A stretch of DNA of 64,000 bases from positions 12,220 to 76,219 of the forward strand of contig CAZEDB010000001.1 of NCBI GenBank assembly GCA_964510855.1, read 5' to 3'. The notes under the pieces are model-generated. The model was given only the letters and a program-made list of their open reading frames with translations. It was not told where the DNA came from and did no database searches. This document shows positions 18,132 to 33,503 of this stretch, one piece after another; position 1 is the stretch's first letter, and the number at the start of each line of letters is the position of its first letter. Made by a program: the position numbers and the translations under genes. This stretch comes from an uncultured Enterobacteriaceae bacterium. GTDB taxonomy: Bacteria > Verrucomicrobiota > Verrucomicrobiia > Opitutales > UBA953.

Positions 18132-19124
18132 GTGCGTCGAATTCGTCTAGCTTTTAGCGATTTCATTTTTTCCAACAATGCTCGAGATCGCATGGCTGGG
18201 TTTAACCCACATGACAACGTCTTCACGCGTCTACTTAAAAGCCGTTATACCCTAGAAATTGTACCAATGGAGGAGGCCGAGGTGCTCATTTACTCAGCCT
18301 TCGGAGAGGCCCACCAAAGATTTATAGGTAAAAAGATCTTTTATACCTCTGAAAATGTTTTACCTGACTTTAATGAATGCGATTTTGCCGTTACTTTTAG
18401 TCATAGTGATGACCCTAGACACTATCGATTACCACAGTATGTCTTTTATGTCGAAGACCCCCAACAGTTAGTAAAGGGCGCTGACTATCGACCCGAGCAC
18501 GTATTACAGACCAAAGAACACTTTTGTAATTTTGTAGTAAGTAACCCAAGGTGCCCTGAGCGTAACCAATTTTTCCGACTCCTTAATCGAAGGCAACGGG
18601 TTGATTCAGCGGGTCGGCATTTTAACAATATCGGAGGTGTGATTAAGGATAAGATCTCGTTTATAAAGAAGTATAAGTTCACCCTAGCTTTTGAGAACTC
18701 ATCGACCTCCGGCTACACTACTGAAAAATTAGTGGAGCCAATGCTGGCAGGAAGCATCCCGATATATTGGGGAAATCCTGACGTCGGTCGCGATTTCAAC
18801 CCTAAGAGTTTTATAAATGTTTCTGATTTTAGTAATTTTGATGAGGCCATTGATTACATTCTCAAAGTCGATGCCGAGCCTGAGCGTTACCTTGCCTATC
18901 TAAACGAGCCGTGGTTGAATCATAATCAGGTACCTGTATGGTTTAATAAAGAGAATCAGCTAGCCGCATGGATGGGTTTTATTGATGCTTCTTGGGAAAA
19001 GCGCCGCCGAATTTATCAACGCCGGGGTCTGCGTGATCATGTTCGTGGCACGGGACTGGCCCGGCATTTATCGAGCCTTGGCTGCAAACTCGATGGCTTA
19101 GCCTGGAAGTTCGGCTGGCGTTAA
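18132..19124 (+). CDS. GT10-family alpha-1,3/4-fucosyltransferase
   Basis: KYKFTLAFENSSTSGYTTEKLVEPMLAGSIPIYWGNPDVGRDFNPKSFINVSDFSNFDEAIDYI is nearly collinear with the H. pylori FucT segment QYKFNLCFENSQGYGYVTEKI..IPIYWGSPSVAKDFNPKSFVNVHDFNNFDEAIDYI, as I recall that sequence. Confidence 0.85.
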   Translation: MRRIRLAFSDFIFSNNARDRMAGFNPHDNVFTRLLKSRYTLEIVPMEEAEVLIYSAFGEAHQRFIGKKIFYTSENVLPDFNECDFAVTFSHSDDPRHYRLPQYVFYVEDPQQLVKGADYRPEHVLQTKEHFCNFVVSNPRCPERNQFFRLLNRRQRVDSAGRHFNNIGGVIKDKISFIKKYKFTLAFENSSTSGYTTEKLVEPMLAGSIPIYWGNPDVGRDFNPKSFINVSDFSNFDEAIDYILKVDAEPERYLAYLNEPWLNHNQVPVWFNKENQLAAWMGFIDASWEKRRRIYQRRGLRDHVRGTGLARHLSSLGCKLDGLAWKFGWR

Positions 19125-19226
19125 TCCTCAGCTATAAGAGCTTACTTGATGCAAAACATTATCTATTGGCTTACGGTATAAATAGAAAAACCTTAAGGTA
19201 GTCGCAGTAAATGACCGATACGTACG

Positions 19227-20492
19227 TCATTTGCAAAAAGCCTTCGTCAGTCGTTCGACGAAGCGCTGCCGCGACAAGGTAGCACGGGTCTCAGCAGCAG
19301 CGACCCCTTGTCTATGTATCGCATCTGCAGGGAGCTCCGCGTAATACCTCAATCCATCACAAAGGGCTTCTGGGTTCCCAGGCGGCCCACAAAGCAGACC
19401 ATTTACACCGTCTACGATAAGATCGGGGGCAATTCCAACCGATGTTGAGAGCACGGGGCGTCCAGATGCCATCGCTTCTGAAATCATCATAGGTCCAGCG
19501 TCATCGACTGAGGGAGAGACAAAAAAATCTGCCGCTTGATAGGCAGTGGACATAGTCTCATCGCCGGAAAGAAACCCGAGGTCGGTGAAAGTGATATATT
19601 TCAGGTTCGTAGGAAAGAACCCGCTTGGGCCAGCGCCAGCGACATGAAGTCGTACCCCGAGTTTATCGAGCCTGCCTAATGCCTCTAGAAAAACACCAAA
19701 TCCTTTATAGGTTATCTGGGGGTCTACCGTGCGTACGAGGGCTACCCGCCGACTGTCTGCAGGCAGGCCTAAACGACGCCTCGCTTGTAGGGAATCGGTT
19801 ACCTCAGGCAAACACTTCAGGTCCAAGGGAATAGGCAGCACGGTTTGCGAAAGACCTTGGAGTACGTGGCTTTCGCTGGCCTTGCGCGCCGACCAGTGGC
19901 TCTGGGCTAAGACAACGGCACCCGCCTTGCGCCAAACATGAGAGCGTGTAGCGGCCTGCCGGCGGGTGACATCATTATCATCGATAGAATTAAGCGCTGG
20001 GCAGCTTCCGCACCCCTCGCGATATCGAGCGCAGGATAGGCTATAATGGCAGCCTCCTGTCATGTGCGCCATGTCCACCTGCCAGAGCCCAATCCTGGCG
20101 CCGAGTGCTTCGGCGATACGGACAACTGAGGCTGGCGACAGATAACCTCCCAGCCAATGCACTAAAACAATATCCCAGTGAGTCGAAATTTTACGGGCGT
20201 GCGCAATAATCGGTTCAGCAGGAAAAACTCCCTCGTCATCAAAATCGAATACCCCATCTAATTTTAGTCCGATACGGCCGAGTTTGCCGGCGAATCTGCG
20301 GCCGTGCCAGGCAACTGAACATACTGGCCCCAGCAACTTAGAGGCGTCGATGACCTCGGGCACAGGGCGCTTCTGTTTCATCACATATGCCGTCGAATGT
20401 ACGCCCTGTTCTAATAAAGCCTGATGAATTCGCATGAATCCAACGGCGGCGCCCCCACCGGCATCCATCTTGCATAAGTGGAGAATCCGCAT
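19227..20492 (-). CDS. GT4-family (GT-B fold) glycosyltransferase
   Basis: N-terminus MRILHL..GGGAA. C-terminal E-x7-E-like region ISEAMASGRPVLSTSVG. Confidence 0.75.
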   Translation of the reverse strand: MRILHLCKMDAGGGAAVGFMRIHQALLEQGVHSTAYVMKQKRPVPEVIDASKLLGPVCSVAWHGRRFAGKLGRIGLKLDGVFDFDDEGVFPAEPIIAHARKISTHWDIVLVHWLGGYLSPASVVRIAEALGARIGLWQVDMAHMTGGCHYSLSCARYREGCGSCPALNSIDDNDVTRRQAATRSHVWRKAGAVVLAQSHWSARKASESHVLQGLSQTVLPIPLDLKCLPEVTDSLQARRRLGLPADSRRVALVRTVDPQITYKGFGVFLEALGRLDKLGVRLHVAGAGPSGFFPTNLKYITFTDLGFLSGDETMSTAYQAADFFVSPSVDDAGPMMISEAMASGRPVLSTSVGIAPDLIVDGVNGLLCGPPGNPEALCDGLRYYAELPADAIHRQGVAAAETRATLSRQRFVERLTKAFCK

Positions 20493-20538
20493 TTACGTTG
20501 ATTCTTCTTTAACTCACTGAGAGTGCAAGTCCTGCGTC

Positions 20539-21351
20539 ATGATGATAAGTACCGAAAAAATTATCCCAGAGATGCCTAAACTTACCGTCGTTACTGTCAC
20601 TTTTAATGACCTAAGCGGGCTCAAACTTACGCGTGAAAGCGTGTGTAAGGACGATGACACCGACTTCGAACACGTCGTTATCGACGGGGGATCAAAAGAC
20701 GGAACTATCGAATATCTCCAAGGACTTCCAGCCGACGTCAGGTGGGTAAGCGAAAAAGACCGGGGGCCGTATGACGCCATGAACAAAGGCGCCTCACTTG
20801 CCCGAGGAGAATGGGTGATGTTTCTTAACTCTGGTGACACTTTAGCAAAGCCTGGCAATCTGGCAAAACTAGTAGCAGCGGCAAATCAATCCGATGCCGG
20901 TTTGGTTTTCGGGGATCACTTCTATAAAGGCAAACTTAGGTCGGCAAAATCCTTGGAGCATTTACATAAACTCCTAAAAGATGGGGACGTAAAAGGATGG
21001 TTGCGGGGGCATCCCTGTCATCAGGCGGTGATTGCTCGCCGACCATTACTGCTGGCTATGCCATTTGATCTAAGCTTCAAGATAGCTGCCGATTTTCACT
21101 GGATGGAGCGCGTCCGCAGTAGTGGAGAGAAATCCCTCAAGGTCGACGGGCCCATCTGCGTCTACCAGCCAGGAGGCCTATCTTCTCGAAGCCTCCTGCG
21201 CTGCACCATCGAATGGTGGAAGATTGTTAAACTCGCGGGCGGAACATCCTCCGTTTGTAGGGCCTTCTTCCTTAAATCATTGCGGAAACACGGGCGCCAA
21301 AAATGTAGGGCTTCTCTGATAGCGAAATTGAAGCGTTTACTTGGGCTATAA
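20539..21351 (+). CDS. GT2-family glycosyltransferase
   Basis: LTVVTVTFND, VIDGGSKDGT and FLNSGD (DxD-like). Confidence 0.8.
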   Translation: MMISTEKIIPEMPKLTVVTVTFNDLSGLKLTRESVCKDDDTDFEHVVIDGGSKDGTIEYLQGLPADVRWVSEKDRGPYDAMNKGASLARGEWVMFLNSGDTLAKPGNLAKLVAAANQSDAGLVFGDHFYKGKLRSAKSLEHLHKLLKDGDVKGWLRGHPCHQAVIARRPLLLAMPFDLSFKIAADFHWMERVRSSGEKSLKVDGPICVYQPGGLSSRSLLRCTIEWWKIVKLAGGTSSVCRAFFLKSLRKHGRQKCRASLIAKLKRLLGL

Positions 21352-21482
21352 TTTCAGCCTGTGTAGCTCCGATAACTTGTTTTTTCACGCGCTCTTAAAG
21401 AAACCAGTCGATTCATAAACGCTTTAACTGAAGGCATCTTTTCGATAAGTTAAGTCACCCGCCTTTATATAGAAGATATGCG

Positions 21483-22463
21483 ATGCATCCTAAAATGAAT
21501 CCCCCTATCTATTTACTTACAACCTGTCTCAATTCCGTCGCCACCATCGATAAGACGCTATGGGGTGTTTTTTCGCAGGAAGGCGGCATCTCCATCCGCT
21601 ACCATGTACAAGATGGTGGATCGACTGATGGAACTCTTGAAAAGTTAGCGTCTTGGGAAAAGCGGCTTTCAACAATGAGGGCGCAACTTCCATGCGAAAT
21701 CGAGTTCAGCTACGACTCTCGACGAGATGGCGGAATGTACGAAGGAATCCGGGCCGGATTCGACCAAATGGGTGTACCCGAAAATGCACTCATGGGGTGG
21801 TGCAACGCGGATGACGTCGTATGGCAAGGCTCATTAGCTCACATCAATCACGTCGGTAGAGAATTTCCAGAGGTGCAATGGCTGTCCGGCTGGTCCACCG
21901 CATTCGATGAACTCGGGCGCTTCAAATGGATGCAGCAAGGCACCTTCTTTCCCCAGCAGATCCTTGCGGCAGGAATGGCCAATGGAACCCACTGGTCTCA
22001 CCTTCAGCAGGAAAGTACTTTTTGGCGGAAAAGACTTTGGGATAAGGTTGGGGGCATTGATCCATCCTTTAAACTGGCTGGCGACTGGGACCTTTGGCGA
22101 CGCTTTGCGCAGCACGAAGAAATTGTTCATGTTGACCGGCAACTAGGCGCTTTTTATTTCCGCAAAGGCCAAAAGAGCTCTAACGCGGCGACCTACGCCA
22201 GCGAATGCATCGCGGCCTACCCTATGGCAGCTAGAGTCGCAGACTATCGACGGTTACTAACCTCTAAACCCAAGCTTGGCGTAACCCGCATAACAAATGA
22301 TGAAAACGGTAAGCTTGTACGAGTTCACGATGAGGTTGATTCGATTTTAGGGGAAAAAATTCGTTTCAATCTACTCCCACTGTCTACTTATTTCCGGAAT
22401 TTAAAACGACGCCACTATGCCTTGCGACGTCGGCATGAACGTCGGGTCAGCCGCGGTAGCTGA
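21483..22463 (+). CDS. GT2-like glycosyltransferase
   Basis: YHVQDGGSTDGT and CNADDVVW resemble GT-A nucleotide-binding and DxD motifs. The rest is unrecognised. Confidence 0.55.
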   Translation: MHPKMNPPIYLLTTCLNSVATIDKTLWGVFSQEGGISIRYHVQDGGSTDGTLEKLASWEKRLSTMRAQLPCEIEFSYDSRRDGGMYEGIRAGFDQMGVPENALMGWCNADDVVWQGSLAHINHVGREFPEVQWLSGWSTAFDELGRFKWMQQGTFFPQQILAAGMANGTHWSHLQQESTFWRKRLWDKVGGIDPSFKLAGDWDLWRRFAQHEEIVHVDRQLGAFYFRKGQKSSNAATYASECIAAYPMAARVADYRRLLTSKPKLGVTRITNDENGKLVRVHDEVDSILGEKIRFNLLPLSTYFRNLKRRHYALRRRHERRVSRGS

Positions 22464-22511
22464 CCATGATTGATCCACAGATATAAATCTGTGGTCACCT
22501 ATAAAACAAAT

Positions 22512-23342
22512 TCAACGAACTCGTACGTACCAATCATCGAAACGGGAATGCTTCTCGTGTTTCTGCTGATATCCTGCCGACTCGAGTAGTTGCTTAATCT
22601 GTTTTCTCATAGGTGTATAATTATGCTCGCAGGTGATAACCTTAAATTTAAAGCGGGAGAAATCGAATTCCTTTAAGATAGCAAATTCGCTACCTTCCGT
22701 ATCTATAGAAAGGTAGTCAGGCTCGGCGGGGGCACCATGCCGCTGCAAAAGGTCATTCAGCGAAACGGTGGGTACCTGATAGCGACACTTTCCAATTCTA
22801 GCCTGCGCGTGGATATCAGATTGGGCAAAATGACTCAGTGTAGAAAACTCACCTATATCAACTTCATCAAAGTCCAGCTGCTCTCCCGAAATTGTCCAAA
22901 CACACTCGGTGTCGATGGCGCAACTCCGGTTCTTCGCCAGCAAGGGGTGCCAGCATCGTGCCGGCTCTGCTAGGATCCCTTTCCATCCGAGCCGTTTCTC
23001 CAGCAACCAGCTGTTGCTGAGTGCGATGCCATCGGCGGCGCCGAATTCGACAAAGAACCCGTTTTCACGTCGTACACCAAGTTCAGAGAGGACAAATAAG
23101 TCCTGCATCAGTTGTGAGCGCGAGAACCCCACTTCTGCTAAAAATTCTGCCCGGCGGCCCTCGGAAACCTGGGCAATCAATGCAGTTAGTAGGTCAAGTT
23201 TCTCGTCAGCGCCTAAACACTCGCCAAAAGCAGCGGCTTCAACCAAACGAACTTCTAAGGCCTTTCGAGCTAGACTGCGCTGCTTTTGATCCAAACGAAG
23301 CCACTCGGGAAAGTACTTAGCTAGTTTCTTACGCAACTTCAT
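22512..23342 (-). CDS. FkbM-family methyltransferase
   Basis: FFVEFGAADGIALSNSWLLE..GWKGILAEP, DYLSIDTEGSE. I moved the start to the internal ATG at 23342, which gives an ATGA overlap with the upstream gene's stop. Confidence 0.75.
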   Translation of the reverse strand: MKLRKKLAKYFPEWLRLDQKQRSLARKALEVRLVEAAAFGECLGADEKLDLLTALIAQVSEGRRAEFLAEVGFSRSQLMQDLFVLSELGVRRENGFFVEFGAADGIALSNSWLLEKRLGWKGILAEPARCWHPLLAKNRSCAIDTECVWTISGEQLDFDEVDIGEFSTLSHFAQSDIHAQARIGKCRYQVPTVSLNDLLQRHGAPAEPDYLSIDTEGSEFAILKEFDFSRFKFKVITCEHNYTPMRKQIKQLLESAGYQQKHEKHSRFDDWYVRVR

Positions 23343-24229
23343 AAGCGATGGGGCATTCGTGATGCGACCGAGGCAATTAGTTGCGCAGGTGTAGCGCGTG
23401 CGATATCGATACGGCCAAGTGGTCTCCACCCCTCAACCAGGAGAGGCTGGCCGGGAGCCGAGGCCAAGATGAAGCCATCGTAGCTTGTGGTATGGTTCTC
23501 AAAAGGAGAGGATACTTCAATGTGGTAACCATACGACCGAAGCGTATTTTCGACAGATTGGTGCAACAACTCTGAATGCGTCGATACGAAGACACGGTCG
23601 ATACGATGCTCGCCCAATGATACGGCAGCGCCCTCAAGTACTTCTACTTCGAATCCTTGAACGTCTGAATGAAGGATATCGAGGTGGATTAAGCCCTGAT
23701 TGCGCAGGAAGGCGTCCACCCCAAAGCCGGACTTTCCAACCCATTCTTGATAAAACTTCCCGGTGAAGCCGTTGGCGCGGAAATTTTCTCGGCCGGCTTC
23801 TAGGTTAATAGGGTCAGCCTCAACCATATGACATAGAGAAGACGGATAGGCTTTTTTAAGCCAGATAGAATAATGGGCCCAGTATGCACCCAGCTCCAAC
23901 ATTACAGGCGCAGGCGTAGCCAACTTACGGAGCATTTCTTGAAAGCAGTATTCTTCAAGGGGCTCATGCACGCCGCGGTTAATTATTAATAGATCACTGA
24001 AAGTGCCATAATACGAACCTGGCCCCCGCAAAGGCACCCTAATACCATTATGAAGGATAACGTGGTTGTTGTGATCAACATATCCCGCTTCAGGGACGCG
24101 ATTAATCAGTAGATTGACGGGGTCAGAAAGGACTTCGCGAAACCGTTCTAGGAATGCCTCAGCTTTGGCAAGTGTCTGCGGATCGGAGAAAGTAGACTTT
24201 TCTACCGCAGTCTTTTTTTTCCAGAACAT
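23339..24229 (-). CDS. FkbM-family methyltransferase (second copy)
   Basis: MLELGAYWAHYS, LHSDVQGFEVEVLEGA, and a class-I methyltransferase layout. Confidence 0.65.
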   Translation of the reverse strand: MFWKKKTAVEKSTFSDPQTLAKAEAFLERFREVLSDPVNLLINRVPEAGYVDHNNHVILHNGIRVPLRGPGSYYGTFSDLLIINRGVHEPLEEYCFQEMLRKLATPAPVMLELGAYWAHYSIWLKKAYPSSLCHMVEADPINLEAGRENFRANGFTGKFYQEWVGKSGFGVDAFLRNQGLIHLDILHSDVQGFEVEVLEGAAVSLGEHRIDRVFVSTHSELLHQSVENTLRSYGYHIEVSSPFENHTTSYDGFILASAPGQPLLVEGWRPLGRIDIARATPAQLIASVASRMPHRL

Positions 24230-24267
24230 GATTATGGCTTAGCTAGTGATAGTTTTACGGGATAAAA

Positions 24268-25440
24268 CTAACAGGGCTGCGCTACTTCGCGAAAATGTTT
24301 TGCGACGTAGGCAATATCTTCCGGCGAGATATTCGCATGGTTAGGAAGGTAGAGACCAAAGTCGTGAACCTTATCGGCGACGGGTAAATGCGTAACGCCG
24401 TACTTCTTAATCCAGAAAGGTTGGCGGCCCATCGAGCCACAGACTAGCGGCCGGCATTCAATGCCCTGTGCCAAAAGGTGTCTGGATACCTCAAGTCGAT
24501 TCTTGGCATAAGTACCGTAGGAAAAACTTGAGACAAAACCGCCTTCGCTAGTTTGGCACCAGAACTCAGGTAGGGCTTTTCGGTAGAGCTCAAAATTGCG
24601 GGCGCGAATGGCAGCAATTTCAGGAAGCCGCTTAAGTTGCAGACGGCCGAGATAAGCATTTAGATCGGTTGAGCGCAGATTATAGCCCGCGTAGTAAAAG
24701 CTGTAAAACTCTCTGAAATCATCGATTTGAAATTCTTTCTTCCAGGCCCGACGGTCAGCTTCGGGGACGTCGCGCGACCAACCATGCGAACGGATGGAGA
24801 GCATAACACTATAGAGTTTATCGTCACTGGTTGTAATTGCCCCACCTTCGATGGTTGATATATGGTGGCCGTAATAAAAAGAGAAAGAGCCGGCGAGCGA
24901 GAGCGCCCCAGTTTTAACACCTTTGTATTCAGAACCTAGGGCCTCACAGGCGTCCTCAATAACTAAACATCCATGCTGGGCACAGAGGCGGCGGACGGCA
25001 TCCATCTGGTTGGGATGTCCCAAGATATGAACCAAAATCAAAAGTGCTGGCTGTTCCTTTTTCAAAAGCGCCTCAAGATGATTAAGATCAACCCCAAGGT
25101 CTTTAGCATCCGAGTCACATAGGAAGCACTCGAAGCCCATTTGTACAAACGGAGACAGCGTGGTAATCCAAGAGACCGCTGGGACAATAACCTTTTTATT
25201 ACGAAGATACCCTGCCTCTAAAAGGCTGTAAGCCATGAGGAGATTGGCCGAAGATCCACTGTTTACCATGATGCTATACTTCGTTCCGGTATAGGCGGCA
25301 AATTCCGCTTCAAATTCCCGCGTAAGGGGTCCTTTAGTAATTTGGTGACCTTCTTTTAACCAACTCGCAAGCAGGTCTATTTCATGGGCTGAAATGGTGT
25401 TATCAGCGAGTTTAACAGCTCGGGTAGGCATATAAATCAA
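24268..25440 (-). CDS. PMP/PLP-dependent NDP-4-keto-6-deoxyhexose 3-dehydratase (ColD / E1 type)
   Basis: DegT-family fold, but SFSFYYGHHISTIEGG has a His-His where aminotransferases carry the Schiff-base Lys. Compare ColD SFYSHHIATMEGG; IRSHGWSR also matches ColD IRAHGWTR. The start may be the ATG at 25431. Confidence 0.75.
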   Translation of the reverse strand: MIYMPTRAVKLADNTISAHEIDLLASWLKEGHQITKGPLTREFEAEFAAYTGTKYSIMVNSGSSANLLMAYSLLEAGYLRNKKVIVPAVSWITTLSPFVQMGFECFLCDSDAKDLGVDLNHLEALLKKEQPALLILVHILGHPNQMDAVRRLCAQHGCLVIEDACEALGSEYKGVKTGALSLAGSFSFYYGHHISTIEGGAITTSDDKLYSVMLSIRSHGWSRDVPEADRRAWKKEFQIDDFREFYSFYYAGYNLRSTDLNAYLGRLQLKRLPEIAAIRARNFELYRKALPEFWCQTSEGGFVSSFSYGTYAKNRLEVSRHLLAQGIECRPLVCGSMGRQPFWIKKYGVTHLPVADKVHDFGLYLPNHANISPEDIAYVAKHFREVAQPC

Positions 25441-26297
25441 CGGTGGCGTAGGGAGTTTAGTAAACTGTGGAACCCGTAGGCCATGCGGGCGTAGATTCGA
25501 GAGAAAAAGAGCATGACACCTGCGATCAAATCAAGCCGTAAGACCGAAATCGTCTTAGCTATAATGTAATAGCGTCGCGCAGACTGATAAGCTAAACGGA
25601 TGGCGCGCTGCTTGAGCTTATCGCGCTGGGCATCAACCGTAATAGATTCAGAATGTACGGAAAAAACCGTGAGGGGTTCGGCCACAAACCCAATACGGGG
25701 ATACTTTAAGGTAACTAACGCTGACATTAGCCAATCTGGCCCAACCCCTCGATATTCGTGGCGGGCAAACGGGACCGTGCCTACAAAAAGTGCGTCGAGG
25801 ATATCTACCCTCCGCATGAGTACGGCACCAGGCGAGACGAGGCCTTTTAGGTGTAAATTCATGAAGCGCGACGCGGGGTAAACTCCTGTCTGCCCAACAC
25901 CCGTGAAAGACTCTTTAATTTTTTCGCCGGTTGCTTCATTTCGAATCTCAGCGGTAGTGAAGCAAAGACCGATATCATCACCCATTAAAGCCAGACACTT
26001 ACTTACGTAAGTGGGCTGTAGATAATCGTCGTCAAAGTTAAGGTGAACGTATTTTGCCGAGGCATTCATAACGCCATCGAGCCAACAAAAGTGCACCCCG
26101 TGGTCCACATCACGTCGAATATAGCGGATGCGCTCTCCGAATGAGGCAGCAACGGTTGGGGTATCGTCTGAACTACCATGGTCTACCACGATGACTTCGC
26201 AAAGTTCTGTCTGGGCCAGGGCTGACTCAACACAACGCTTGAGCATTGCCGCGCGATTAAATGTCGGAATGACGATGGTGACAAGGGGTACGGTCAT
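25437..26297 (-). CDS. GT2-family glycosyltransferase
   Basis: VTIVIPTFNRAAML, VVDHGSSDDT and NFDDD. Confidence 0.8.
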   Translation of the reverse strand: MTVPLVTIVIPTFNRAAMLKRCVESALAQTELCEVIVVDHGSSDDTPTVAASFGERIRYIRRDVDHGVHFCWLDGVMNASAKYVHLNFDDDYLQPTYVSKCLALMGDDIGLCFTTAEIRNEATGEKIKESFTGVGQTGVYPASRFMNLHLKGLVSPGAVLMRRVDILDALFVGTVPFARHEYRGVGPDWLMSALVTLKYPRIGFVAEPLTVFSVHSESITVDAQRDKLKQRAIRLAYQSARRYYIIAKTISVLRLDLIAGVMLFFSRIYARMAYGFHSLLNSLRHR

Positions 26298-27079
26298 TAG
26301 CTGAGAAATTGGCGGAGGCGGGAAATGTCAGCAACTAGAGAAGTCGCAGGCGACGATGAGGCAGGGACAATTCGCAAAGGCTGCGGCGCCTGAGACTGGG
26401 CGAAGTCACTGATTTTTGTACCACGACCTGAACCAATATTAATAATGCCAGTTGCTTGGCGCTCGGCGAGAGCGAGAATCCTTGCCACCACATCATCAGC
26501 TAACGACAGGTCACGAACGTCGTCTACGCCATGCAATGGAAAGGGCCGGGAAAGATCTTCGGTGGCAAAGCGATGGCGCAAGGTCGGGTAAAGAAACGAA
26601 CCCGTCTGTTCGGGATGATAAAAACTAAAGATACGTCCTATGCACCAAGGGATACCAGCAGTGTCCGCAGAAGACTCGACCACCTGCTCACCCATGCGCT
26701 TAGATAGTCCGTAAGGATTAATTGGGCTTACGGGTGCGTCTTCACGTAATGGCTCCTGCTGGGGTCGATAGACGTGACTGCTACTAGCGTAGAAAAGCCA
26801 AGGCTTAGAACGGCAAGCCGTAAGGGCTGAAATGAGGTTAGCGGTACCTCCTACATTGACGCGAAAAGCTCGCGCTGGGTCATTCTGCACGACCTGAGTC
26901 GGAACCACGGCAGCAAAATGCAACATCGCATCAAATTGAGCCTGTTCGACCCATCCCTGTAAGGCTTGCAGTTCACCTACATCCCCCGTGAATAAATTCA
27001 CATCATGGCCGAGCTCAACAAGTTGCTTAACCGCAATTCGGCCCAAAATACCCCGTCCGCCAGTGAGGCCAAAACGCAT
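26297..27079 (-). CDS. Short NAD(P)-dependent sugar epimerase/reductase (SDR)
   Basis: Rossmann motif GGRGILG and catalytic YGLSK (YxxxK). 260 aa. Confidence 0.7.
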   Translation of the reverse strand: MRFGLTGGRGILGRIAVKQLVELGHDVNLFTGDVGELQALQGWVEQAQFDAMLHFAAVVPTQVVQNDPARAFRVNVGGTANLISALTACRSKPWLFYASSSHVYRPQQEPLREDAPVSPINPYGLSKRMGEQVVESSADTAGIPWCIGRIFSFYHPEQTGSFLYPTLRHRFATEDLSRPFPLHGVDDVRDLSLADDVVARILALAERQATGIINIGSGRGTKISDFAQSQAPQPLRIVPASSSPATSLVADISRLRQFLS

Positions 27080-27194
27080 ATTTCCATAGTTGCGACGTGA
27101 GCCCTCTATTTCAACCCGAATACCCTTAAGAAATTAGTTTGTTGCCACCTTAATGACTTGGAACAACCCGCAGACTCCGCTTCATTACCTGCCT

Positions 27195-27266
27195 GCGGGC
27201 GTCGTATAACGGCTATTATGTGAGCTTCCCAAGCTTGAGACGAGGGTTCGACTCCCTCCGCCCGCA
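27195..27266 (+). tRNA. tRNA-Gly (anticodon CCC)
   Basis: 72-nt cloverleaf by hand. Acceptor GCGGGCG/CGCCCGC, anticodon loop TTCCCAA, T-arm GAGGG-TTCGACT-CCCTC, discriminator A. CCA is not encoded. Confidence 0.9.
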
Positions 27267-27281
27267 CCCTGGTACCGCTTC

Positions 27282-28028
27282 ATGTTGCCAACTATCTACC
27301 TAATAAATCTAGACCGCGATACCGATAGACTGCGGGAGTTTATGGGAGCCAATGGCTCACTAGGACTCCAAATTATTCGTGTTCCCGCAATACTCGGTAA
27401 AGACATTCAGGTTCCTCCGGTTGACTTAGATGGGTATCGGCGAATCAACGCTGGCGGTGGCCCACCTAAACCCGCGGAAGTGGGGTGCTACTTAAGCCAT
27501 ATCAAAGCCATGGCGTTCTTTTTAAAAAGTTCAGAGCCTTGGTGCATTATTATGGAGGACGATGCTAATCTAAAATCAGCTAGTCTAACGGTACTAAAAA
27601 GTCTTGGTGAATCAAAGGCCTGGGATGTGGCTAAACTTTTCTACTTTCACCACGGATTTCCACTCCGCATGCAGCCGCTCGCGGAAAATCACCACCTAAC
27701 TCTACATCTGGCACGCACCACGTCTTGTGCGGCCTATGCTATCACGCGTGAAGCAGCTCTTAAACTCACTAAACATCTTCTGCCTATTAAGGAACCTGTA
27801 GATCACGCCCTAGATCAAGGGTGGGACAGCGGCCTTCGCATACGTGCGCTTTATCCACGACTCGCTGATCTGATGCCAACCTCAACTCAATCCACCATTG
27901 GTTATGGTGTGCGAAAACGTCAGGCGATGCCGGCCTATGCCTGGGTACAGCTGCGCAAGGGTATGCGAGAAATACGTCGGTTTTGCCATGGTCTCAAATT
28001 CTACCTTTTAAGTTTTTTAAAAAGGTAG
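27282..28028 (+). CDS. GT25-family glycosyltransferase (LPS/LOS-type)
   Basis: IYLINLDRDTDRL, GCYLSHI and IIMEDDA are typical of GT25. Confidence 0.75.
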   Translation: MLPTIYLINLDRDTDRLREFMGANGSLGLQIIRVPAILGKDIQVPPVDLDGYRRINAGGGPPKPAEVGCYLSHIKAMAFFLKSSEPWCIIMEDDANLKSASLTVLKSLGESKAWDVAKLFYFHHGFPLRMQPLAENHHLTLHLARTTSCAAYAITREAALKLTKHLLPIKEPVDHALDQGWDSGLRIRALYPRLADLMPTSTQSTIGYGVRKRQAMPAYAWVQLRKGMREIRRFCHGLKFYLLSFLKR

Positions 28029-28086
28029 GGAGACAATCTCTAAGTTTAAGAAGCAGAAAGCAGTCCTGCCTATAAACAAGCGGGAT

Positions 28087-28686
28087 TTAGTTAGTTGAAT
28101 TGCCCGTGAAGCGGGGCATTGGGCGTGTGGGCGTGTGATCAATCCCGGAGCGCGCAAAAACTTTGAAAAAGGTGCGGTAGACAATTTTGAGGTCCAACCA
28201 AAAGGTGCGGTTATCGACATACCAAACATCGAGGGCAAATTTTTCATCCCAACTCAGGGAATTACGTCCATTAATCTGCGCCCAGCCCGTAACTCCAGGC
28301 TTAACCTCAAGGCGGCGCCGCTGAATCGGACTATAGAGAGGGACGTATTCCATCAGCAAGGGCCGGGGACCGACAACACTCATGTCGCCTTTAAACACAT
28401 TCCACATTTCAGGAAATTCATCGAGCGAACTCGAGCGCAGGAATTTACCGAAAGCCGTCAGACGTTCATTATCAGGTAAAAGTTCGCCTTGGGCGTCACG
28501 CGCATCGGTCATGGAGCGAAACTTTATCATCTCGAAAGGTTGCCCATCTTTTCCGGGCCTTACATGCCTAAAGAAAATTGGGGCGCCAAGCTTTAGGCGT
28601 ACCAAGATGGCTACTGTCAGGAGTAAGGGGGAAAAGGCCAACAACCAGCCGAGGGAAAATCCAATATCAAAAAGACGTTTAAGCAT
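28087..28686 (-). CDS. Small monotopic phosphoglycosyl transferase (PglC/WbaP-C-type initiating sugar transferase)
   Basis: MLKRLFDIGFSL..., PIFFRHVRPGKDGQPFEMIKFRSM, and PGVTGWAQINGRN. Confidence 0.85.
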   Translation of the reverse strand: MLKRLFDIGFSLGWLLAFSPLLLTVAILVRLKLGAPIFFRHVRPGKDGQPFEMIKFRSMTDARDAQGELLPDNERLTAFGKFLRSSSLDEFPEMWNVFKGDMSVVGPRPLLMEYVPLYSPIQRRRLEVKPGVTGWAQINGRNSLSWDEKFALDVWYVDNRTFWLDLKIVYRTFFKVFARSGIDHTPTRPMPRFTGNSTN

Positions 28687-28691
28687 GTGGG

Positions 28692-31052
28692 TTAGCGAGG
28701 AAGACGATCAATTTCTACCAGTCCAATCCGAGCGAGGCGGTCGATAAAGGCAATTTCTACTTCAGCCTCATTACCGTCGTTAGGACGAACTGGAACCTCG
28801 AGAACGTTCAAACCAGGTACAAGCCGGATGCTACGATTTAAACCTCGGCGGTGCGGCGTAGAAACCTGCGCCAGCGGCTCACCCGTTAATTCATCAACTT
28901 TGGGGGGCGTAGGCGTGCTCTTAGGAAAACGCACCTTCAAGGTAGCTCCATTACCAGGTTCATGGTCATCTTGCACCGTGACTCGGATTCGCAAGATTTC
29001 ACCTGCAGCAACGGAGAAGGTACGGTGCATACGTCCTTGTGGAGCTAAGGCTTCAACACCTTCGGCACTGACTTCATAGGTACCAGGAGCCGCGACCCAA
29101 ATCCGCCAGCCCTCGTAGTCGACAGGTAAACCGCGAAACGAGAAACTGGTAGCGGTAACTTTGGCTCGTTTGCGCTGAGAGGCAATTACGGCGAGTTTAG
29201 CTTCCGCGGGTGCCTCAGGAGGAACTCGCGTGGTTGGTCCAACAATCAAGGGCCAGGGGTTAGGTTCAGAAAATTTAACCCACTCAAGATTTTCCTGTGA
29301 GGGCCAACGTGCGGCGTGAAAGGCAATTAAGGCGTCGCGGCGGGCATACTCCGCATTTAACATCGCATCGAAAGCGGCGGCAGAGGCGACGGTGCCAGAC
29401 CTAATAATAAGGCGTGCTTGTTCCTGCCGCACGTGATGAGTGCGTACCGCTGCCCAAGCTAATTCAAACTGGGTGAGCCGCTGGCGCATCCGGCGGTGGC
29501 GAGCATCCGAAGGCGCAGCCGCCAGGGCCTCACGAGCATCTTTTAAATAAGCCAACCCGCGCGCACCCAAGAGGTCTTGATAGTCTGCCACCCGAAAACC
29601 GCTATCACGCCAACCCAAGAGCCATTGTCCCGGAATGCGCTCACCCAAGGTAGCCTCCCAAATGCGCCCGATATCTTCGTAAAACTTGAGCATGGCTGGG
29701 GCGGCTGGACCATAAGCAGCGGTGAACCAGTGAGCCTGCAGTTGTTGCACATCCGCCTCAGGATCTGAAAGCAAACGTGATCCGACCCAAGCCTTGGGCG
29801 CATCGAATATCCAAAGTGGATCTAATTCAGCATACCAACTATCGACCCCCGCGCGCTGTGCTGCTTTGATGGAACTGGAGAGCGCACCAAAATGGACCCG
29901 CGGGAAAGGGACATCGCGCCCGAACCAATAATCCCAGGTGCCGAGGCGCTTCACACCTGACTTACCCCAAGCTGCTAAGCGCTCAGATTCCTCTTCGGCA
30001 TAAGCTGGGAGCGCATATTGAATACGATCGGCACAAACCGCAGGGAAAATATCAGGGTGTACTGGGAATGAAGGTGGGGCCTGGGCATCCAGATAAGCGA
30101 GGGCGCCTAGAGCGCGATCGCCTCCTGGATTCCAGTTGAGTTCAGCTACTTCATTTAAAAACCCAAAAACAAAATCCGATCGATGAGGTCGACCATCAAT
30201 AACTTGTTCGCCCGGCCAAGCTTCAGGAATATCAGGATAAACTACTGAATCATTAATTCCCATGGGGACGGCTATCTCTCTTGGATTGGCTGTAAGCCAG
30301 GCAAAGGCGGCCGCAGCGGCTAAAGGGGCGGCATCGGGGTGGGATAAATCAGGATTAGCTGATCGGCCTCTTTGCGTAGGTGCTAGTGCCACGCCATCGA
30401 GTTGGGCAAAAAGTTCAGGTCTCTGCTCAAAAAGCTCCTGGGTAAAAGCAAGGTGAATGCCATGAGTACACCTCGGGCGCTCGCCATAGCCATTGAGACG
30501 AGCCCAAGCAATCGCTTCAGGTCCTCGCATACCTGAGATAGCACGCCAAGCGATAGCAGGAACCCAAACTTCATCGGCGGGTGGGCTGACGAGTTCTAGG
30601 GCGGCATAATCAGCGCCAGCGTGCGAGGGTAAGACAAATGTCACGCCGAGCGCAGCTTCCGCAAAACGTCCGCAAGCCATGCGCGTAGCCATAGGGCTAT
30701 TACCAACCAGCACCAAGGTATCACCCCACCATTTTCTAATAGCGGTATCGCCATCGCGCGGAGCGGGGAGAAGTTCAGCCCGTCGGGCCAGTTTAGTATT
30801 ACCAAGCGCAATGCCGGTCCGTGCAGTCGTACCTTGCTCGAGTCGTACCTCGGGGCGGATTCCCGTCACGCGTTCGCACCAATCGGCGAGTTCTTCAGCA
30901 GCAACTAATTCTTCAAAATCAGGTTCAGCCGGAATCCAAATCGGGCCACTCCACTGATTATTAATAAAAAGCGCCTGCGGCTGCGTTCCCTGAGGAGTAT
31001 GCGCACAGCCAGCGAATGCTAGCATTAGGAGCAGCCAGAAATATTTCTGCAC
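28692..31052 (-). CDS. Large lipoprotein of unknown function (possibly DUF4838 / glycoside-hydrolase-associated fold)
   Basis: Signal peptide with lipobox LAFAGC. The N-terminal pattern ..EELVAAEELADWCERVTG.. resembles the DUF4838 N-terminus, but the family call is weak. Confidence 0.5.
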   Translation of the reverse strand: MQKYFWLLLMLAFAGCAHTPQGTQPQALFINNQWSGPIWIPAEPDFEELVAAEELADWCERVTGIRPEVRLEQGTTARTGIALGNTKLARRAELLPAPRDGDTAIRKWWGDTLVLVGNSPMATRMACGRFAEAALGVTFVLPSHAGADYAALELVSPPADEVWVPAIAWRAISGMRGPEAIAWARLNGYGERPRCTHGIHLAFTQELFEQRPELFAQLDGVALAPTQRGRSANPDLSHPDAAPLAAAAAFAWLTANPREIAVPMGINDSVVYPDIPEAWPGEQVIDGRPHRSDFVFGFLNEVAELNWNPGGDRALGALAYLDAQAPPSFPVHPDIFPAVCADRIQYALPAYAEEESERLAAWGKSGVKRLGTWDYWFGRDVPFPRVHFGALSSSIKAAQRAGVDSWYAELDPLWIFDAPKAWVGSRLLSDPEADVQQLQAHWFTAAYGPAAPAMLKFYEDIGRIWEATLGERIPGQWLLGWRDSGFRVADYQDLLGARGLAYLKDAREALAAAPSDARHRRMRQRLTQFELAWAAVRTHHVRQEQARLIIRSGTVASAAAFDAMLNAEYARRDALIAFHAARWPSQENLEWVKFSEPNPWPLIVGPTTRVPPEAPAEAKLAVIASQRKRAKVTATSFSFRGLPVDYEGWRIWVAAPGTYEVSAEGVEALAPQGRMHRTFSVAAGEILRIRVTVQDDHEPGNGATLKVRFPKSTPTPPKVDELTGEPLAQVSTPHRRGLNRSIRLVPGLNVLEVPVRPNDGNEAEVEIAFIDRLARIGLVEIDRLPR

Positions 31053-31169
31053 ACTGGGAGTCTCTAGAGCCCGAGCAGGGGCGGCAAGCCCTCACCCACG
31101 GGCGAGTAAAGATAACTAGGGAAAGGGGGCAGTGGATTAGCATTTAAAGGTGCACAGGGTCGCTGGCCT

Positions 31170-32363
31170 ATGCACCCCTCACTCCTGTTTTCTTTCTGTT
31201 GCTTGGTTGTTACACAAGTTTCCGCCGCGGTTTGGTCAGGCGCTGGTAACCCAGACAATATTTGGGACCCAGCCAATTGGCATCAGGGGACGGCGCCGAC
31301 TTACGAAGATCCGGTATGGGAAATTTCTGCGGGCCTTACAGCGCGGGTCGATACTGCAACTGCTCCCGCGTGGATTATTAAACGTGGTGAAGGCACCTTA
31401 GTGTTGGGATCATCGTTACCCGATACGATTAGTTTAGAGGTCGAACAAGGTACGGTGAGTTGGACGGATCCGGTTGCGCTTGGACACCTCCGTCTTAGCG
31501 GGGGCCTACTTGCAGCCGGACAAAGTCTGCAGGTCGGGCTAATGGAAATTGCGGGTGCTACTGATTTAAACTTAGCGACCTTACCCAATCTCTCAGTTGG
31601 AACCCTCCGCGTAGAAAGTACAGGGACGGTAACCTGGTCAGAGAACGTACTCGCCAGCAGTCTAGAAATTGAAGCGGGTCTGGTTGACTTCACCGATACC
31701 CGTGTACCCGCCAGCGTTGCCATCACGCTTAATGGCGGCGAAATGATTGGGGGTATTCTTGAGTCTCAAGTTACTGCCACGGGTGGAACATTAAGTTCTA
31801 CGATTTTAGGAAACTTTTATTTAAGAGGCGGCCAAGTAACCGCGAATGGCGCACAAATTTATGGGCAAGTTCTCTTAGAAGGCGGCATGCTTTCGGGTTA
31901 TTTGGGTACCATGGGAAGCATTTTTACTGCCTGGTATGGAGGACAAGTTCATATCGCCGGCACCCTTTATATGGAATCGATGGGGGCTTTAGGTTTTCCG
32001 CTGGAATTTGCTGAGTTAACTCAACCCATCGTCGTTACAGGCGAGTTTAGCTCGTCGATGACAAATGTTTTAGATTTTGGCTTAGTCGATTGGCGCGACC
32101 CTTATTGGGATGAAATTCGTCAATTCACCGTTATCGATGTTTGGGAAGGCGGGGTTGTAAACGCGACCTTTGCTCACGATGAAACGATAGGGGACGGGCA
32201 GGGTTTATGGAGTCGGGCGGATAATACCGAGGGCGACTTAATCATGCGCTGGACCCCACAAGATATCACCCCGGTCCCTGAAGCGTCTACCACTGGCCTC
32301 TTAGCCTTGGCAGCGCTAGCGCTGGTTAGCGTCCGCCGAAAGCGGCACGGAAGGCTTCAATAA
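31170..32363 (+). CDS. PEP-CTERM-anchored secreted protein with autotransporter-associated beta-strand-like repeats
   Basis: N-terminal signal peptide, IIKRGEGTLVLGSS-type repeats, and C-terminal VPEASTTGLLALAALALVSVRRKR (PEP motif, TM helix, Arg cluster). Confidence 0.75.
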   Translation: MHPSLLFSFCCLVVTQVSAAVWSGAGNPDNIWDPANWHQGTAPTYEDPVWEISAGLTARVDTATAPAWIIKRGEGTLVLGSSLPDTISLEVEQGTVSWTDPVALGHLRLSGGLLAAGQSLQVGLMEIAGATDLNLATLPNLSVGTLRVESTGTVTWSENVLASSLEIEAGLVDFTDTRVPASVAITLNGGEMIGGILESQVTATGGTLSSTILGNFYLRGGQVTANGAQIYGQVLLEGGMLSGYLGTMGSIFTAWYGGQVHIAGTLYMESMGALGFPLEFAELTQPIVVTGEFSSSMTNVLDFGLVDWRDPYWDEIRQFTVIDVWEGGVVNATFAHDETIGDGQGLWSRADNTEGDLIMRWTPQDITPVPEASTTGLLALAALALVSVRRKRHGRLQ

Positions 32364-33456
32364 CCCGCTCACGTTCGCCGTCCGTCATACCTGAACCCGA
32401 AGGTAGGCACAAACCTTGGGCAAAGAGCTGATCGCTCACGCCTCGCCCGATGTATTCTGTCGAACGGAAGACGGGCTGAAGGTGCATGGGCTTCCAGATC
32501 GGGCGCGTTTCAATGTCGGCCTTCTCAAGGGCGAGCCGGATACGTTCACGATCAGTGCCGGCTTCCTGCGGGTTAATAGTAAGACACGAAAGCCAACGTG
32601 TCGACTGACCCCAAGGGGCTTCGGGCTGCATTTGCAGTCCAGGCAAATCAGCAAAAGCTTTTTGGTAAGCGGCGAAGTGGGCCCGGCGGCGCGCCACCTT
32701 GGCGTCGAGATTTTCCAATTGGCCACGTCCAATACCCGCACAGACATTACTCAAACGATAGTTATACCCTAGCGTCGTATGCTCATAGTGCGGAGCAGGG
32801 TCGCGGGCTTGAGTTGCAAGATGACGCGCCTGCTGCGCGAGCGCTTTATCATGGGTAACCAACATCCCGCCTCCAGAGGTAGTAATAATCTTATTCCCGT
32901 TAAACGAATGAATCCCGAAGCGCCCCAAGGATCCTGGTGACTTTCCTTGATAGGTGGCCCCAAGGGCCTCGGCAGCATCTTCAATCAGTGCCACACCATG
33001 CTGCTCACAAATTTTAATAATGGGGTTAAGGTTAGCGGCCTGACCATAGAGGTGGGCGACGACTAACCCCCGCGGCGCACGACCCGTGCGGGCTTTACGG
33101 GTAATAACCTCGGCTAAAATATCAGGATCGGCATTCCAACTTACGGATTCAGAATCAACAAAAACTGGGGTGGCGTTTAAATAAGTAATCGGCGCAGCTG
33201 AAGCGACAAAGGTGAGTGTGGAGCAAATCACTTCGTCGCCCTGCCCTACCCCAGAGAGACGAAGCGCCAGATGTAAGGCAGCGGTACCTGAGGCAAGAGC
33301 TACCGCATGAGGTGCACCAACCTTAGCCGCAAACTCTCGCTCAAAGGCCTCAAGATTAGGGCCAACTGGAGCCACCCAGTTGCCTTCAAAGGCTTCCGCA
33401 ACATACCTGCGCTCGGCAGCACCGATATCGGGAGGAGATAGGTAGATTCGGGCCAT
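32326..33456 (-). CDS. DegT/DnrJ/EryC1/StrS-family sugar aminotransferase
   Basis: HSFNGNKIITTSGGGML retains the PLP lysine. The layout is typical of the family. Confidence 0.85.
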   Translation of the reverse strand: MARIYLSPPDIGAAERRYVAEAFEGNWVAPVGPNLEAFEREFAAKVGAPHAVALASGTAALHLALRLSGVGQGDEVICSTLTFVASAAPITYLNATPVFVDSESVSWNADPDILAEVITRKARTGRAPRGLVVAHLYGQAANLNPIIKICEQHGVALIEDAAEALGATYQGKSPGSLGRFGIHSFNGNKIITTSGGGMLVTHDKALAQQARHLATQARDPAPHYEHTTLGYNYRLSNVCAGIGRGQLENLDAKVARRRAHFAAYQKAFADLPGLQMQPEAPWGQSTRWLSCLTINPQEAGTDRERIRLALEKADIETRPIWKPMHLQPVFRSTEYIGRGVSDQLFAQGLCLPSGSGMTDGERERVIEAFRAAFGGR

Positions 33457-33503
33457 CTGTATTCAGCGTGGCGAGGCAAGCGGACTGGGGCAATCCGAGA
33501 CCT

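Follow-up and report, generated by a model that had tools for sequence, protein, structure and literature searches.

A cluster of genes for a surface glycan lies beside dnaE in an uncultured freshwater bacterium of the Opitutales (Verrucomicrobiota), and its content differs between species and between strains. The window, by which we mean the whole stretch of 64,000 nucleotides analyzed, corresponds to C1:12220-76219 of a 47-contig metagenome-assembled genome (MAG) of 1.63 Mb, rated 95% complete and labeled G000; plain positions are those of the window, and positions prefixed with C those of contigs of the assembly. Protein families were assigned through Pfam, NCBIfam and sequence searches of the PDB, and the tRNA gene with ARAGORN. 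The relatives retrieved with the transferase of the island are freshwater “Opitutae/Opitutales” MAGs of the Verrucomicrobiota, and the stretch occurs in metagenome runs from lakes, rivers, runoff and groundwater. From left to right, the features of the locus are:

13963-17700, reverse strand: dnaE, DNA polymerase III alpha (Pfam PHP, DNA_pol3_alpha, finger, HHH_6); conserved left anchor
17701-18131, no strand: non-coding spacer of 430 nt from dnaE to the GT10 gene, with no open reading frame (ORF) of at least 100 aa; putative left recombination boundary
18132-19124, forward strand: GT10 alpha-1,3-fucosyltransferase-like gene, cassette M1 (PF00852, PF18025; Helicobacter pylori FucT 2NZW, E 5e-43)
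19227-24229, both strands: cassette M2, five genes, nested inside M1 (Pfam)
19227-20492, reverse strand: GT4 glycosyltransferase, M2 (Pfam)
20539-21351, forward strand: GT2 glycosyltransferase, M2 (Pfam)
21483-22463, forward strand: GT2-like gene, M2 (sub-threshold match)
22512-23429, reverse strand: FkbM methyltransferase, M2 (Pfam)
23339-24229, reverse strand: second FkbM methyltransferase, M2 (Pfam)
24268-27079, reverse strand: rest of M1, a translationally coupled triad of short-chain dehydrogenase/reductase (SDR), GT2 and ColD-type genes (Pfam)
24268-25440, reverse strand: ColD-type 3-dehydratase, predicted to be pyridoxamine phosphate (PMP)-dependent and to act on an NDP-4-keto-6-deoxyhexose, M1 (ColD 2GMS, E 7.5e-62)
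25437-26297, reverse strand: GT2 glycosyltransferase, M1 (Pfam)
26297-27079, reverse strand: SDR of 260 aa, M1 (Pfam)
27194-27269, forward strand: tRNA-Gly(CCC) (ARAGORN); conserved internal anchor between two variable slots
27282-28028, forward strand: GT25, the lipooligosaccharide (LOS)-type beta-glycosyltransferase family, cassette M3 (PF01755)
28087-28686, reverse strand: PglC-like monotopic phosphoglycosyl transferase (PF02397; PglC 8G1N, E 3e-61, full length); conserved right anchor
28692-31052, reverse strand: DUF4838 lipoprotein of 786 aa (PF16126; lipobox LAFAGC; GH163/GH185-type, GH20-like domain)
31170-32363, forward strand: secreted protein with a PEP-CTERM tail (PF07589, weak; C-terminal VPEASTTG, transmembrane (TM) segment and RRKR)
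32326-33456, reverse strand: PglE/LegC-like sugar 4-aminotransferase, DegT2 (PF01041; TIGR04181, 376 bits; Campylobacter jejuni PglE 1O61, E 1e-89)

Most of what the initial annotation listed here is present: GT10, GT4, GT25, two FkbM methyltransferases, a 3-dehydratase, an SDR, a PglC-like transferase, a DegT aminotransferase and the tRNA gene. Its four GT2 or GT2-like genes come down to two solid GT2 genes and one with a sub-threshold match, and the DUF4838 lipoprotein and the PEP-CTERM protein had been left out. We agree with it that the locus itself is without Wzx, Wzy, Wzz, an ABC exporter or a nucleotide-sugar activating enzyme, as none of the 14 locus proteins matched the Wzx, Wzy, Wzz, ABC-exporter or nucleotidyltransferase families in Pfam or NCBIfam. 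In the ColD-type protein a His-His pair replaces the Schiff-base lysine; GHHIST aligns with SHHIAT of ColD (2GMS), at a position flagged in ColD by the H188N mutant entry 3B8X. With a histidine in place of the PLP-binding lysine this DegT-fold protein is, judged by its alignment, a ColD-type (E1) sugar 3-dehydratase. The PglC-like transferase is predicted to prime a glycan on undecaprenyl phosphate. The DUF4838 gene lies 5 nt upstream of it in the same orientation; this domain forms the catalytic part of GH163 and GH185 glycoside hydrolases, which are distantly related to GH20 (PMC10570127).

For comparison between species, dnaE was located in 40 relatives and the adjacent DNA was fetched. The order dnaE, tRNA-Gly(CCC), PglC-like gene and DUF4838 gene is kept in G000 and in four congeners (G002, G004, G006 and G009; dnaE 82-87% identical, and 80-87% across the congeners), while the genes inside the slots so anchored differ among the five genomes. 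Slot A, between dnaE and the tRNA gene, measures 1-9.5 kb, and slot B, between the tRNA gene and the transferase, 0-4.7 kb:

G000 (window): slot A 9.5 kb; slot B, the GT25 gene
G002: slot A 9.4 kb, with two divergent GT10 genes and another DegT; slot B, an ORF of 358 aa
G004: slot A about 1 kb; slot B 4.7 kb, including a 44%-identical GT25
G006: slot A about 3 kb; slot B empty
G009: slot A about 3 kb; slot B empty

GT25 is thus missing from G006 and G009, and the G004 copy sits on the opposite side of the tRNA gene. To the right of the slots the picture is one of conservation: the PglC-like transferase is 73-87% identical in congeners, and in G002, the closest of them, the identities are 87% for the transferase, 62% for DUF4838, 29% for the PEP-CTERM protein (conserved in position and fast-evolving in sequence), 83% for the PglE-like DegT2 (66-71% in other Opitutales loci) and 82% for FeoB. 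Since G002 keeps the whole of 28087-33456, and at least the transferase-DUF4838 pair is kept in three more congeners, the variable island proper is 17701-28086. The 15-kb extent first given to it was accordingly too generous, as the AT-rich, variable part stops at about 28.1 kb and 28087-33456 is core, with a GC content near the genome average. dnaE also bounds glycan genes in three further Opitutales contigs (L239, L240 and L241).

Variation within the species was followed in Logan contigs, rather than raw reads, from eight further metagenome runs (X3, X4, X7, X8, X9, X11, X12 and X20), aligned along positions 14500-34400; such contigs demonstrate presence and joins, not strict absence, and their depth values are flat per contig. 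The flanks are matched at about 98-99% identity. At contig level five of the eight runs (X4, X7, X8, X9 and X12) show the island replaced, as a mosaic or mostly missing, and X3, X11 and X20 carry the version of the window at 99% identity or higher. Shares of 31-mers were compared for 28087-36000, taken as the conserved part, and 18132-27079, taken as the variable part:

X7: conserved 0.54, variable 0.07
X8: conserved 0.53, variable 0.06
X9: conserved 0.53, variable <0.05
X12: conserved 0.47, variable <0.05
X4: conserved 0.60, variable 0.19
X3: conserved 0.70, variable 0.85
X11: conserved 0.52, variable 0.70

Contigs of X3 and X11 cross every junction of the version in the window, which is therefore not a chimeric assembly. 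In an independent assembly (L112, a Logan contig of run SRR14454018) the transferase protein is identical, and product lengths and Pfam families point to the same gene set running from the POT transporter through to the transferase; the contig stops 60 nt beyond the gene for the latter, at the border of the variable region. A scan of metagenome contigs returned no conspecific contig, the best match being 75% identical.

The variant contigs all depart from the reference exactly at 17701, the start of dnaE (loose ends in X7, X9 and X12, a joint in X8), differ from it from 17702 on, and rejoin it at the tRNA gene, at about 27189-27234. A mosaic contig of 12 kb from X8 has 1052 nt in place of GT10, followed by the GT4 and GT2 genes at 88% identity, an insertion of 1493 nt, the GT2-like and two FkbM genes at 94% identity, and 62 nt in place of the ColD-GT2-SDR block; GT25 is absent, so that X8 carries M2 without M1. 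In X7 and X9 the GT25 gene is precisely missing (27271-28094) and an identical filler of 17 nt stands in its place; it is also absent from the contigs of X20. The dominant strain of X4 has a depth of 27-40, against 0-7 over the island, and a minor variant in the same run joins 19134 to 24271, so that M2 is missing as one block and GT10 lies directly beside the ColD-like gene. These breakpoints define three independently varying cassettes: M1 (GT10 with ColD-GT2-SDR), M2 (from GT4 to the second FkbM gene, lying within M1) and M3 (GT25). None of the fetched loci matches the sequences at the loose ends of the alternative alleles. The hypervariable, serotype-like locus suspected at the outset is strongly supported, with a fixed position and a content that differs between congeneric species and between strains with flanks about 98-99% identical.

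We consider it highly probable that the region is a replacement flexible genomic island (a “glycotype” or serotype locus) carried by a freshwater member of the Opitutales with a streamlined genome. It has a fixed position between core genes, a content that varies between strains at contig level, and genes for an exposed glycan with GC below that of the genome. Islands of this kind and O-chain clusters are known from aquatic bacteria (Alteromonas, Pelagibacterales and others; PMC4033161, PMC11898729), and likewise combine a fixed site between core genes and strain-specific glycan genes with lowered GC, poor recovery from metagenomes despite their flanks and a lack of mobile-element genes; their raised divergence at the edges may also have a counterpart here, as a few short contigs suggest. 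The present locus differs from them in its host, a freshwater Opitutales; in its anchors, which are dnaE, tRNA-Gly(CCC) and the PglC-like gene instead of rRNA genes; in its small size (about 10 kb) with three nested, independently varying cassettes; and in the lack of a Wzx in the genome, though related Opitutales loci carry one beside the DUF4838-transferase pair. The kind of locus is already well described, and current ideas are not overturned; the glycotype-island pattern is here extended to abundant uncultured freshwater Verrucomicrobia, whose co-existing strains differ mainly in a surface-glycan cluster at a fixed site, and the exact anchors and cassette breakpoints could be used for counting glycotypes in lake metagenomes and for linking them to phages. 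Three oddities deserve flagging: the order-wide tie between a GH163/185-like lipoprotein and the transferase, the apparent loss of Wzx, and a conserved ColD-type module with no visible sugar-nucleotide supply.

As to the mode of change, tRNA-Gly(CCC) is the only copy in the genome and occupies the same place in all five congeneric genomes examined, and cassettes vary on both of its sides; we therefore regard it as a conserved anchor and not as an integration scar. No integrase or recombinase was found by Pfam among the 14 locus proteins, and no att-like repeats or direct repeat of the tRNA 3' end in the locus, where repeats are at chance level. The absence of both from the locus, with a tRNA gene present only once, fits a replacement island exchanged by homologous recombination better than a tRNA-integrated mobile element. 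Simple sequence repeats of the kind used in phase variation were not found either, the longest runs of the island being one A7 and one T8. In X12 and X7 the PglC-like gene is 4.8-6.1% diverged, against 1-2% farther out, as judged from a few short contigs; similar peaks of substitution at the boundary have been reported for islands that homologous recombination has replaced (PMC4033161). We infer that homologous recombination within the conserved anchors is the mechanism: the cassettes would be gained, lost and replaced in this way with no integrase, and co-existing strains would thereby display different surface glycans, presumably under pressure from phages or grazers.

A biochemical outline can be proposed from the family assignments. 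A PglF-like membrane dehydratase is encoded 53 kb from the locus (C1:95571-97460; Polysacc_synt_2 and CoA_binding_3, 374 bits), and with homologues of PglC, PglE and PglF a Pgl-type core appears to be present. In such a scheme the PglF-like 4,6-dehydratase and the PglE-like aminotransferase would make a 2,4-diamino-2,4,6-trideoxyhexose of the bacillosamine or AAT type, which the PglC-like transferase would load onto undecaprenyl phosphate. A single hexapeptide-repeat protein came to light (C15:15835-16392), and from its sequence and its weak match, rather than from a family search, it was not judged PglD-like; lacking a PglD-like acetyltransferase, the priming sugar may keep a free 4-amino group. 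The cassettes between the transferase, tRNA-Gly(CCC) and dnaE would supply the strain-specific part of the glycan, M1 contributing a GT10 transferase of the fucosyl or colitosyl type, the ColD-like 3-dehydratase, a GT2 and an SDR, M2 the GT4, GT2 and GT2-like enzymes and two FkbM O-methyltransferases, and M3 the GT25. With about six glycosyltransferases and no gene for a polymerase or for chain length, the product is most likely a short, defined oligosaccharide, twice O-methylated, with a fucose-like or 3,6-dideoxy sugar and a primer of the bacillosamine or AAT type.

The source of the deoxy sugar is less clear. Searches of the 95%-complete MAG yielded no GMD, ManC, RmlA or RmlB; the best match to PF16363 is an SDR of 313 aa (174 bits), the NTP_transferase matches are GlgC and two kinase-linked enzymes, and no homologue of the dehydratases and nucleotidyltransferases of relatives was found in G000. 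GT10 and the ColD-like enzyme are thus left without a visible source of donor and substrate, respectively, and with neither GMD nor ManC detected a complete GDP-colitose pathway seems not to be encoded. In the GDP-L-colitose pathway of Escherichia coli O55/O111 (ManC, GMD, ColD, ColC) there is the same pairing of a DegT-fold enzyme, closest to ColD and with histidine for the catalytic lysine, and a coupled SDR, and a GT10 that could take a 3-deoxy-fucose donor is linked to the ColD-like gene in four genomes. The window differs from that pathway in that GMD and ManC are lacking, the 260-aa SDR is not specifically ColC-like, and a GT2 gene stands between the SDR and ColD-like genes. One candidate for the salvage of a nucleotide sugar is a gene cluster at C7:41667-45478, which encodes an extended SDR, an APH-family kinase, an NTP-transferase and a PIG-L deacetylase. 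A DegT-type aminotransferase gene (C1:137947-138977) is truncated where contig C1 ends; it may belong to a second sugar-modification locus split across contigs and limits statements that a gene is absent from the genome.

The later steps were sought across the genome. PF01943 (Wzx) has no match in G000 or in four of six congeners (G001, G002, G005 and G006), and tblastn with an Opitutales Wzx found no homologue in G000. Among 62 polytopic proteins of G000 screened by hydropathy, 40 of which were run through Pfam, the only members of the MOP family are MurJ and one MatE, and STT3, ArnT/PMT and Wzy_C are not represented; Wzy_C has no G000 match above 16.6 bits, and Wzz was searched among the locus proteins, not genome-wide. 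The combination of Wzx and Wzy that characterizes a Wzx/Wzy-dependent O-antigen or capsule locus is therefore not seen. In this genome-reduced genus the absence of Wzx looks real, though MAGs tend to lose flexible genes. A weak Wzy_C match in G000 was a false lead, as it sits in the sodium-solute symporter part of a protein fused to a NanM/Kelch propeller; this fusion of an N-acetylneuraminate-epimerase-like propeller and a sodium:solute symporter measures 853 aa (C11:35829-38390, L030). Also set aside was a protein of 467 aa and 10 TM segments with no Pfam match (C3:81308-82711), whose neighbors, an ApbE-like protein and a thioesterase, give no link to glycans.

Of the exporters in the genome, three are ABCB-type half-transporters, one of them beside a GT9 heptosyltransferase; PDB sequence searches did not separate MsbA, PglK and multidrug types among them, and none is specifically PglK- or Wzk-like. 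A fused ABC_tran-ABC2_membrane exporter (C16:24988-26691) is conserved in the genus. Near it, as a separate observation, lies a gene for a fusion of an ATP-grasp domain (PylC-like N-terminus) and an extended SDR (C16:28333-30420, L201; 695 aa), whose GC of 0.489 is far under that of the genome.

For attachment, a candidate is encoded at C18:4954-7068 (L220): a protein of 704 aa with 11 predicted TM segments and C-terminal TPR repeats, conserved in the genus. Its AlphaFold model (pLDDT 80.8) has a polytopic domain that aligns to WaaL 7TPG_B (TM-score 0.61 on the target, E 3.5e-3), the only one of 50 structure matches listed that aligns over the whole of that domain. Orthologues score 26-29 bits against the Wzy_C cut-off of 31.7, PF04932 is found in 3 of 25 homologues, and the G000 copy has no Pfam match. 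We take this protein as a modeled WaaL-fold/TPR candidate for the attachment step; the oligosaccharide, once moved across en bloc by some flippase that is not a classical Wzx, might then be passed by the C18 protein to lipid A-core or to proteins. The expectation in the initial annotation that export and sugar-nucleotide supply lie elsewhere or are unconventional agrees with these findings: no Wzx, Wzy or STT3 in the genome-wide searches described, a PglF-like gene 53 kb away and a WaaL-fold gene on another contig. A comparable arrangement is the lipopolysaccharide (LPS) O-antigen pathway of H. pylori (WecA, GT10 FucTs, GT25-type transferases, the ABC flippase Wzk, WaaL; PMC2841628): the closest solved relative of the GT10 protein is 2NZW, GT25 is shared, Wzx and Wzy are lacking and the WaaL-fold gene is apart from the glycosyltransferases. 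The window departs from this pathway in PglC-type instead of WecA-type initiation, in the lack of a Wzk-specific match and of detectable genes for GDP-fucose synthesis, and in having no homopolymer or heptad repeats for phase variation, diversity arising through gene replacement.

Loci of other Opitutales give some measure of what is usual. In a census of 148 ORFs downstream of the transferase in 22 loci the top families were GFO/IDH/MocA oxidoreductases (16), FkbM (12), epimerases (11), DegT (10) and GT2 (9), followed by GT25 (8), NTP-transferases (6), GT11 (5) and GT10 (5); the 25 commonest families included neither flippases nor polymerases. At least 21 other Opitutales loci carry a Wzx gene no more than 10 kb from the DUF4838-transferase pair. 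Relatives of the ColD-like protein at 81-96% identity occur in dozens of protein clusters, the named ones being from Verrucomicrobiota or Opitutales MAGs, and the SDR-GT2-ColD triad with GT10 recurs in L239, L240, L241 and L073, three long contigs having both beside dnaE. A recent transfer of M1 was considered, as the ColD-like proteins of the window and of another genus (L073) share 89% identity, against only 65% for the transferases; it was rejected on third-codon-position identities of 0.29-0.40 for all genes between the window and L073, so that the high identity of the ColD-like proteins reflects constraint and not recent horizontal transfer. With synonymous sites saturated in this way, M1 appears from its sequence to be an old, recurrent module with no sign of recent transfer.

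Several points weigh against the replacement island as we have outlined it. No flippase was identified and the three ABCB exporters are unspecific; no PglD-like acetyltransferase was found; the ColD-like enzyme is without visible substrate supply; and the case for WaaL consists of a fold match at E 3.5e-3 together with orthologue Pfam scores below threshold. The alternative cassettes of X7, X9 and X12 were not recovered, and to call the island “replaced” rather than “deleted” in these runs relies on their loose ends; the strain evidence as a whole consists of Logan contigs, which speak for presence only. The MAG is 95% complete, and flexible genes are those most often lost in binning. Selection by phages is taken from the literature only.

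The most serious alternative leaves the variable locus as it is and changes the acceptor: the glycan would serve general protein O-glycosylation and not LPS, in the manner of the Campylobacter and Neisseria Pgl systems, and the C18 protein would be an oligosaccharyltransferase of the PglL type, for which the adjacent PEP-CTERM protein and other exosortase cargo could be targets. This we hold to be a real but minority possibility. PglL and WaaL have the Wzy_C fold in common and the C18 protein fits either, a PEP-CTERM protein stands in the conserved part and an exosortase gene is present (C2:55735-56628), and the PglC-, PglE- and PglF-like core, the few single-addition glycosyltransferases (about six), the short glycan they imply and the lack of a polymerase all recall C. 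jejuni and Neisseria pgl; unlike in those systems, the screen of polytopic proteins revealed no PglB (STT3), neither PglD nor a specific PglK could be identified, the dehydratase is 53 kb away, and the transferase set is strain-variable and includes methyltransferases as well as GT25 and GT10, classically enzymes of LOS and LPS. The data do not separate a lipid A-core acceptor from a protein acceptor.

A bolder combination would have Wzx lost and its role taken by an undescribed flipping route (moonlighting MurJ or ABCB, or a new protein) for an oligosaccharide that is still undecaprenyl-linked and strain-variable, the translationally linked DUF4838 lipoprotein acting as obligatory periplasmic processing partner of the transferase, and ColD-GT2-SDR-GT10 making a 3,6-dideoxy sugar without GMD or RmlB. 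We think this joint reading unlikely, and a truly new export route no more probable than that.

Also unlikely is an O-polysaccharide dependent on an ABC transporter, its chain completed in the cytoplasm, capped by FkbM methylation and exported by the protein at C16:24988-26691. Methyl caps end the chains in ABC-dependent O-polysaccharide systems, the locus has two FkbM methyltransferases, one ABC-2-type exporter is conserved across the genus and neither Wzx nor Wzy was found; but that exporter is far from the locus and by Pfam has no Wzt-type carbohydrate-binding extension, such systems are normally initiated by a WecA-type and not by a PglC-type enzyme, no polymerizing glycosyltransferase was recognized, and no ABC-2 family is among the 25 commonest in the 22-locus census. 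A short oligosaccharide from a replacement island is the reading we prefer.

Base composition bears on the two remaining alternatives. GC content is 0.556 for the genome, 0.511 for 18132-33456 and 0.496 for 18132-28686, with the flanks of the window at 0.549 and 0.538; compared with 15-kb segments genome-wide (mean 0.555, SD 0.012) the region is about 3.5 SD low, and the seven lowest-GC of the 953 10-kb segments of the assembly all overlap the island. The AT-richer region noted at first thus contains the lowest-GC 10-kb stretch of the assembly, although it is milder and smaller than had been described; the hand count of 23 against 42 G+C per line of 60 nt was overstated, as GT10 averages 26.5 and dnaE 32.0 and the figure of 42 is the maximum of 62 dnaE lines. 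GC at third codon positions (GC3) is nearly unbiased genome-wide (mean 0.557, SD 0.05), and only GT10 (0.3rd percentile; gene GC 0.444, the most AT-rich gene of the island) and GT25 (0.4th percentile) are extreme. Most other island genes have a GC near 0.50, values being normal for GT4 (0.548), DUF4838 (0.549) and DegT2 (0.554), and the deficit is distributed over all three codon positions. Synonymous-codon log-likelihood z values range from +0.3 to -1.35, except for one GT2 at -2.0, so that codon usage proper is not anomalous; of the two properties in which a difference from the genome had been expected, GC differs and codon usage does not. Of the 22 Opitutales loci, 16 have a higher AT content on the variable than on the conserved side (mean GC difference -1.2 points, and about -4 points in the two congeners of this set), and reduced GC is a known general feature of O-chain clusters (PMC11898729). 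A second low-GC stretch, at C1:96-106 kb, was rejected as a glycan region since it is mostly housekeeping (dnaN, aroA-cmk, purK and others) besides the PglF-like gene.

A deficit spread over all codon positions, GC3 extremes confined to two genes and normal codon preference would also suit a stable, vertically inherited LPS or exopolysaccharide cluster, the low GC of which stems from amino-acid composition and weak expression, the strain differences being artefacts of assembly or of related species. The recurrence of the SDR-GT2-ColD triad and GT10 beside dnaE in distant Opitutales agrees with it, and evidence from contigs is unable to prove absence. We nevertheless judge it improbable: single contigs join the conserved flanks to other contents (the X8 mosaic, the 17-nt joint of X7 and X9, and 19134 to 24271 in X4), flank identities of 98-99% argue for the same species, and species-representative genomes of the same genus differ in the sizes of the slots and in the island genes they keep. 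A classical horizontally acquired island, inserted site-specifically at tRNA-Gly(CCC) from a donor of lower GC and specific to a strain or lineage, is very improbable and already largely refuted; horizontal acquisition was one of the two options that the initial annotation drew from the composition and the embedded tRNA. Although the region has the lowest GC of the genome, encloses a tRNA gene and varies at breakpoints that coincide with the ends of that gene, the 14 proteins include no integrase or recombinase, neither a direct repeat of the tRNA 3' end nor any repeat above chance was seen, the single-copy tRNA gene is in place in five congeneric genomes with cassettes varying on both sides, synonymous codons are used in the ordinary way, synonymous sites are saturated in the M1 genes that another genus shares (which makes the sharing not recent), and the interval from dnaE to the transferase holds glycan genes in congeners and in three further Opitutales contigs.

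Contig breaks did not favor the downstream side of the transferase (34 against 26 within 2.5 kb, which is similar, in a sample biased by requiring DUF4838). G002, with a DnaE 87% identical, has a GC of about 0.70 at the locus (L001/L032) against 0.54-0.55 here, a strong shift in composition within one GTDB genus. The DUF4838-transferase adjacency was found in 77 Opitutales loci from genomes and metagenomes (for example, L240 1-2669 and L241 3197-6084), and Wzx, GT4 and GH5 genes often lie farther upstream of the pair; a hydrolase so closely tied to an initiating transferase is an unusual pairing that calls for an explanation.

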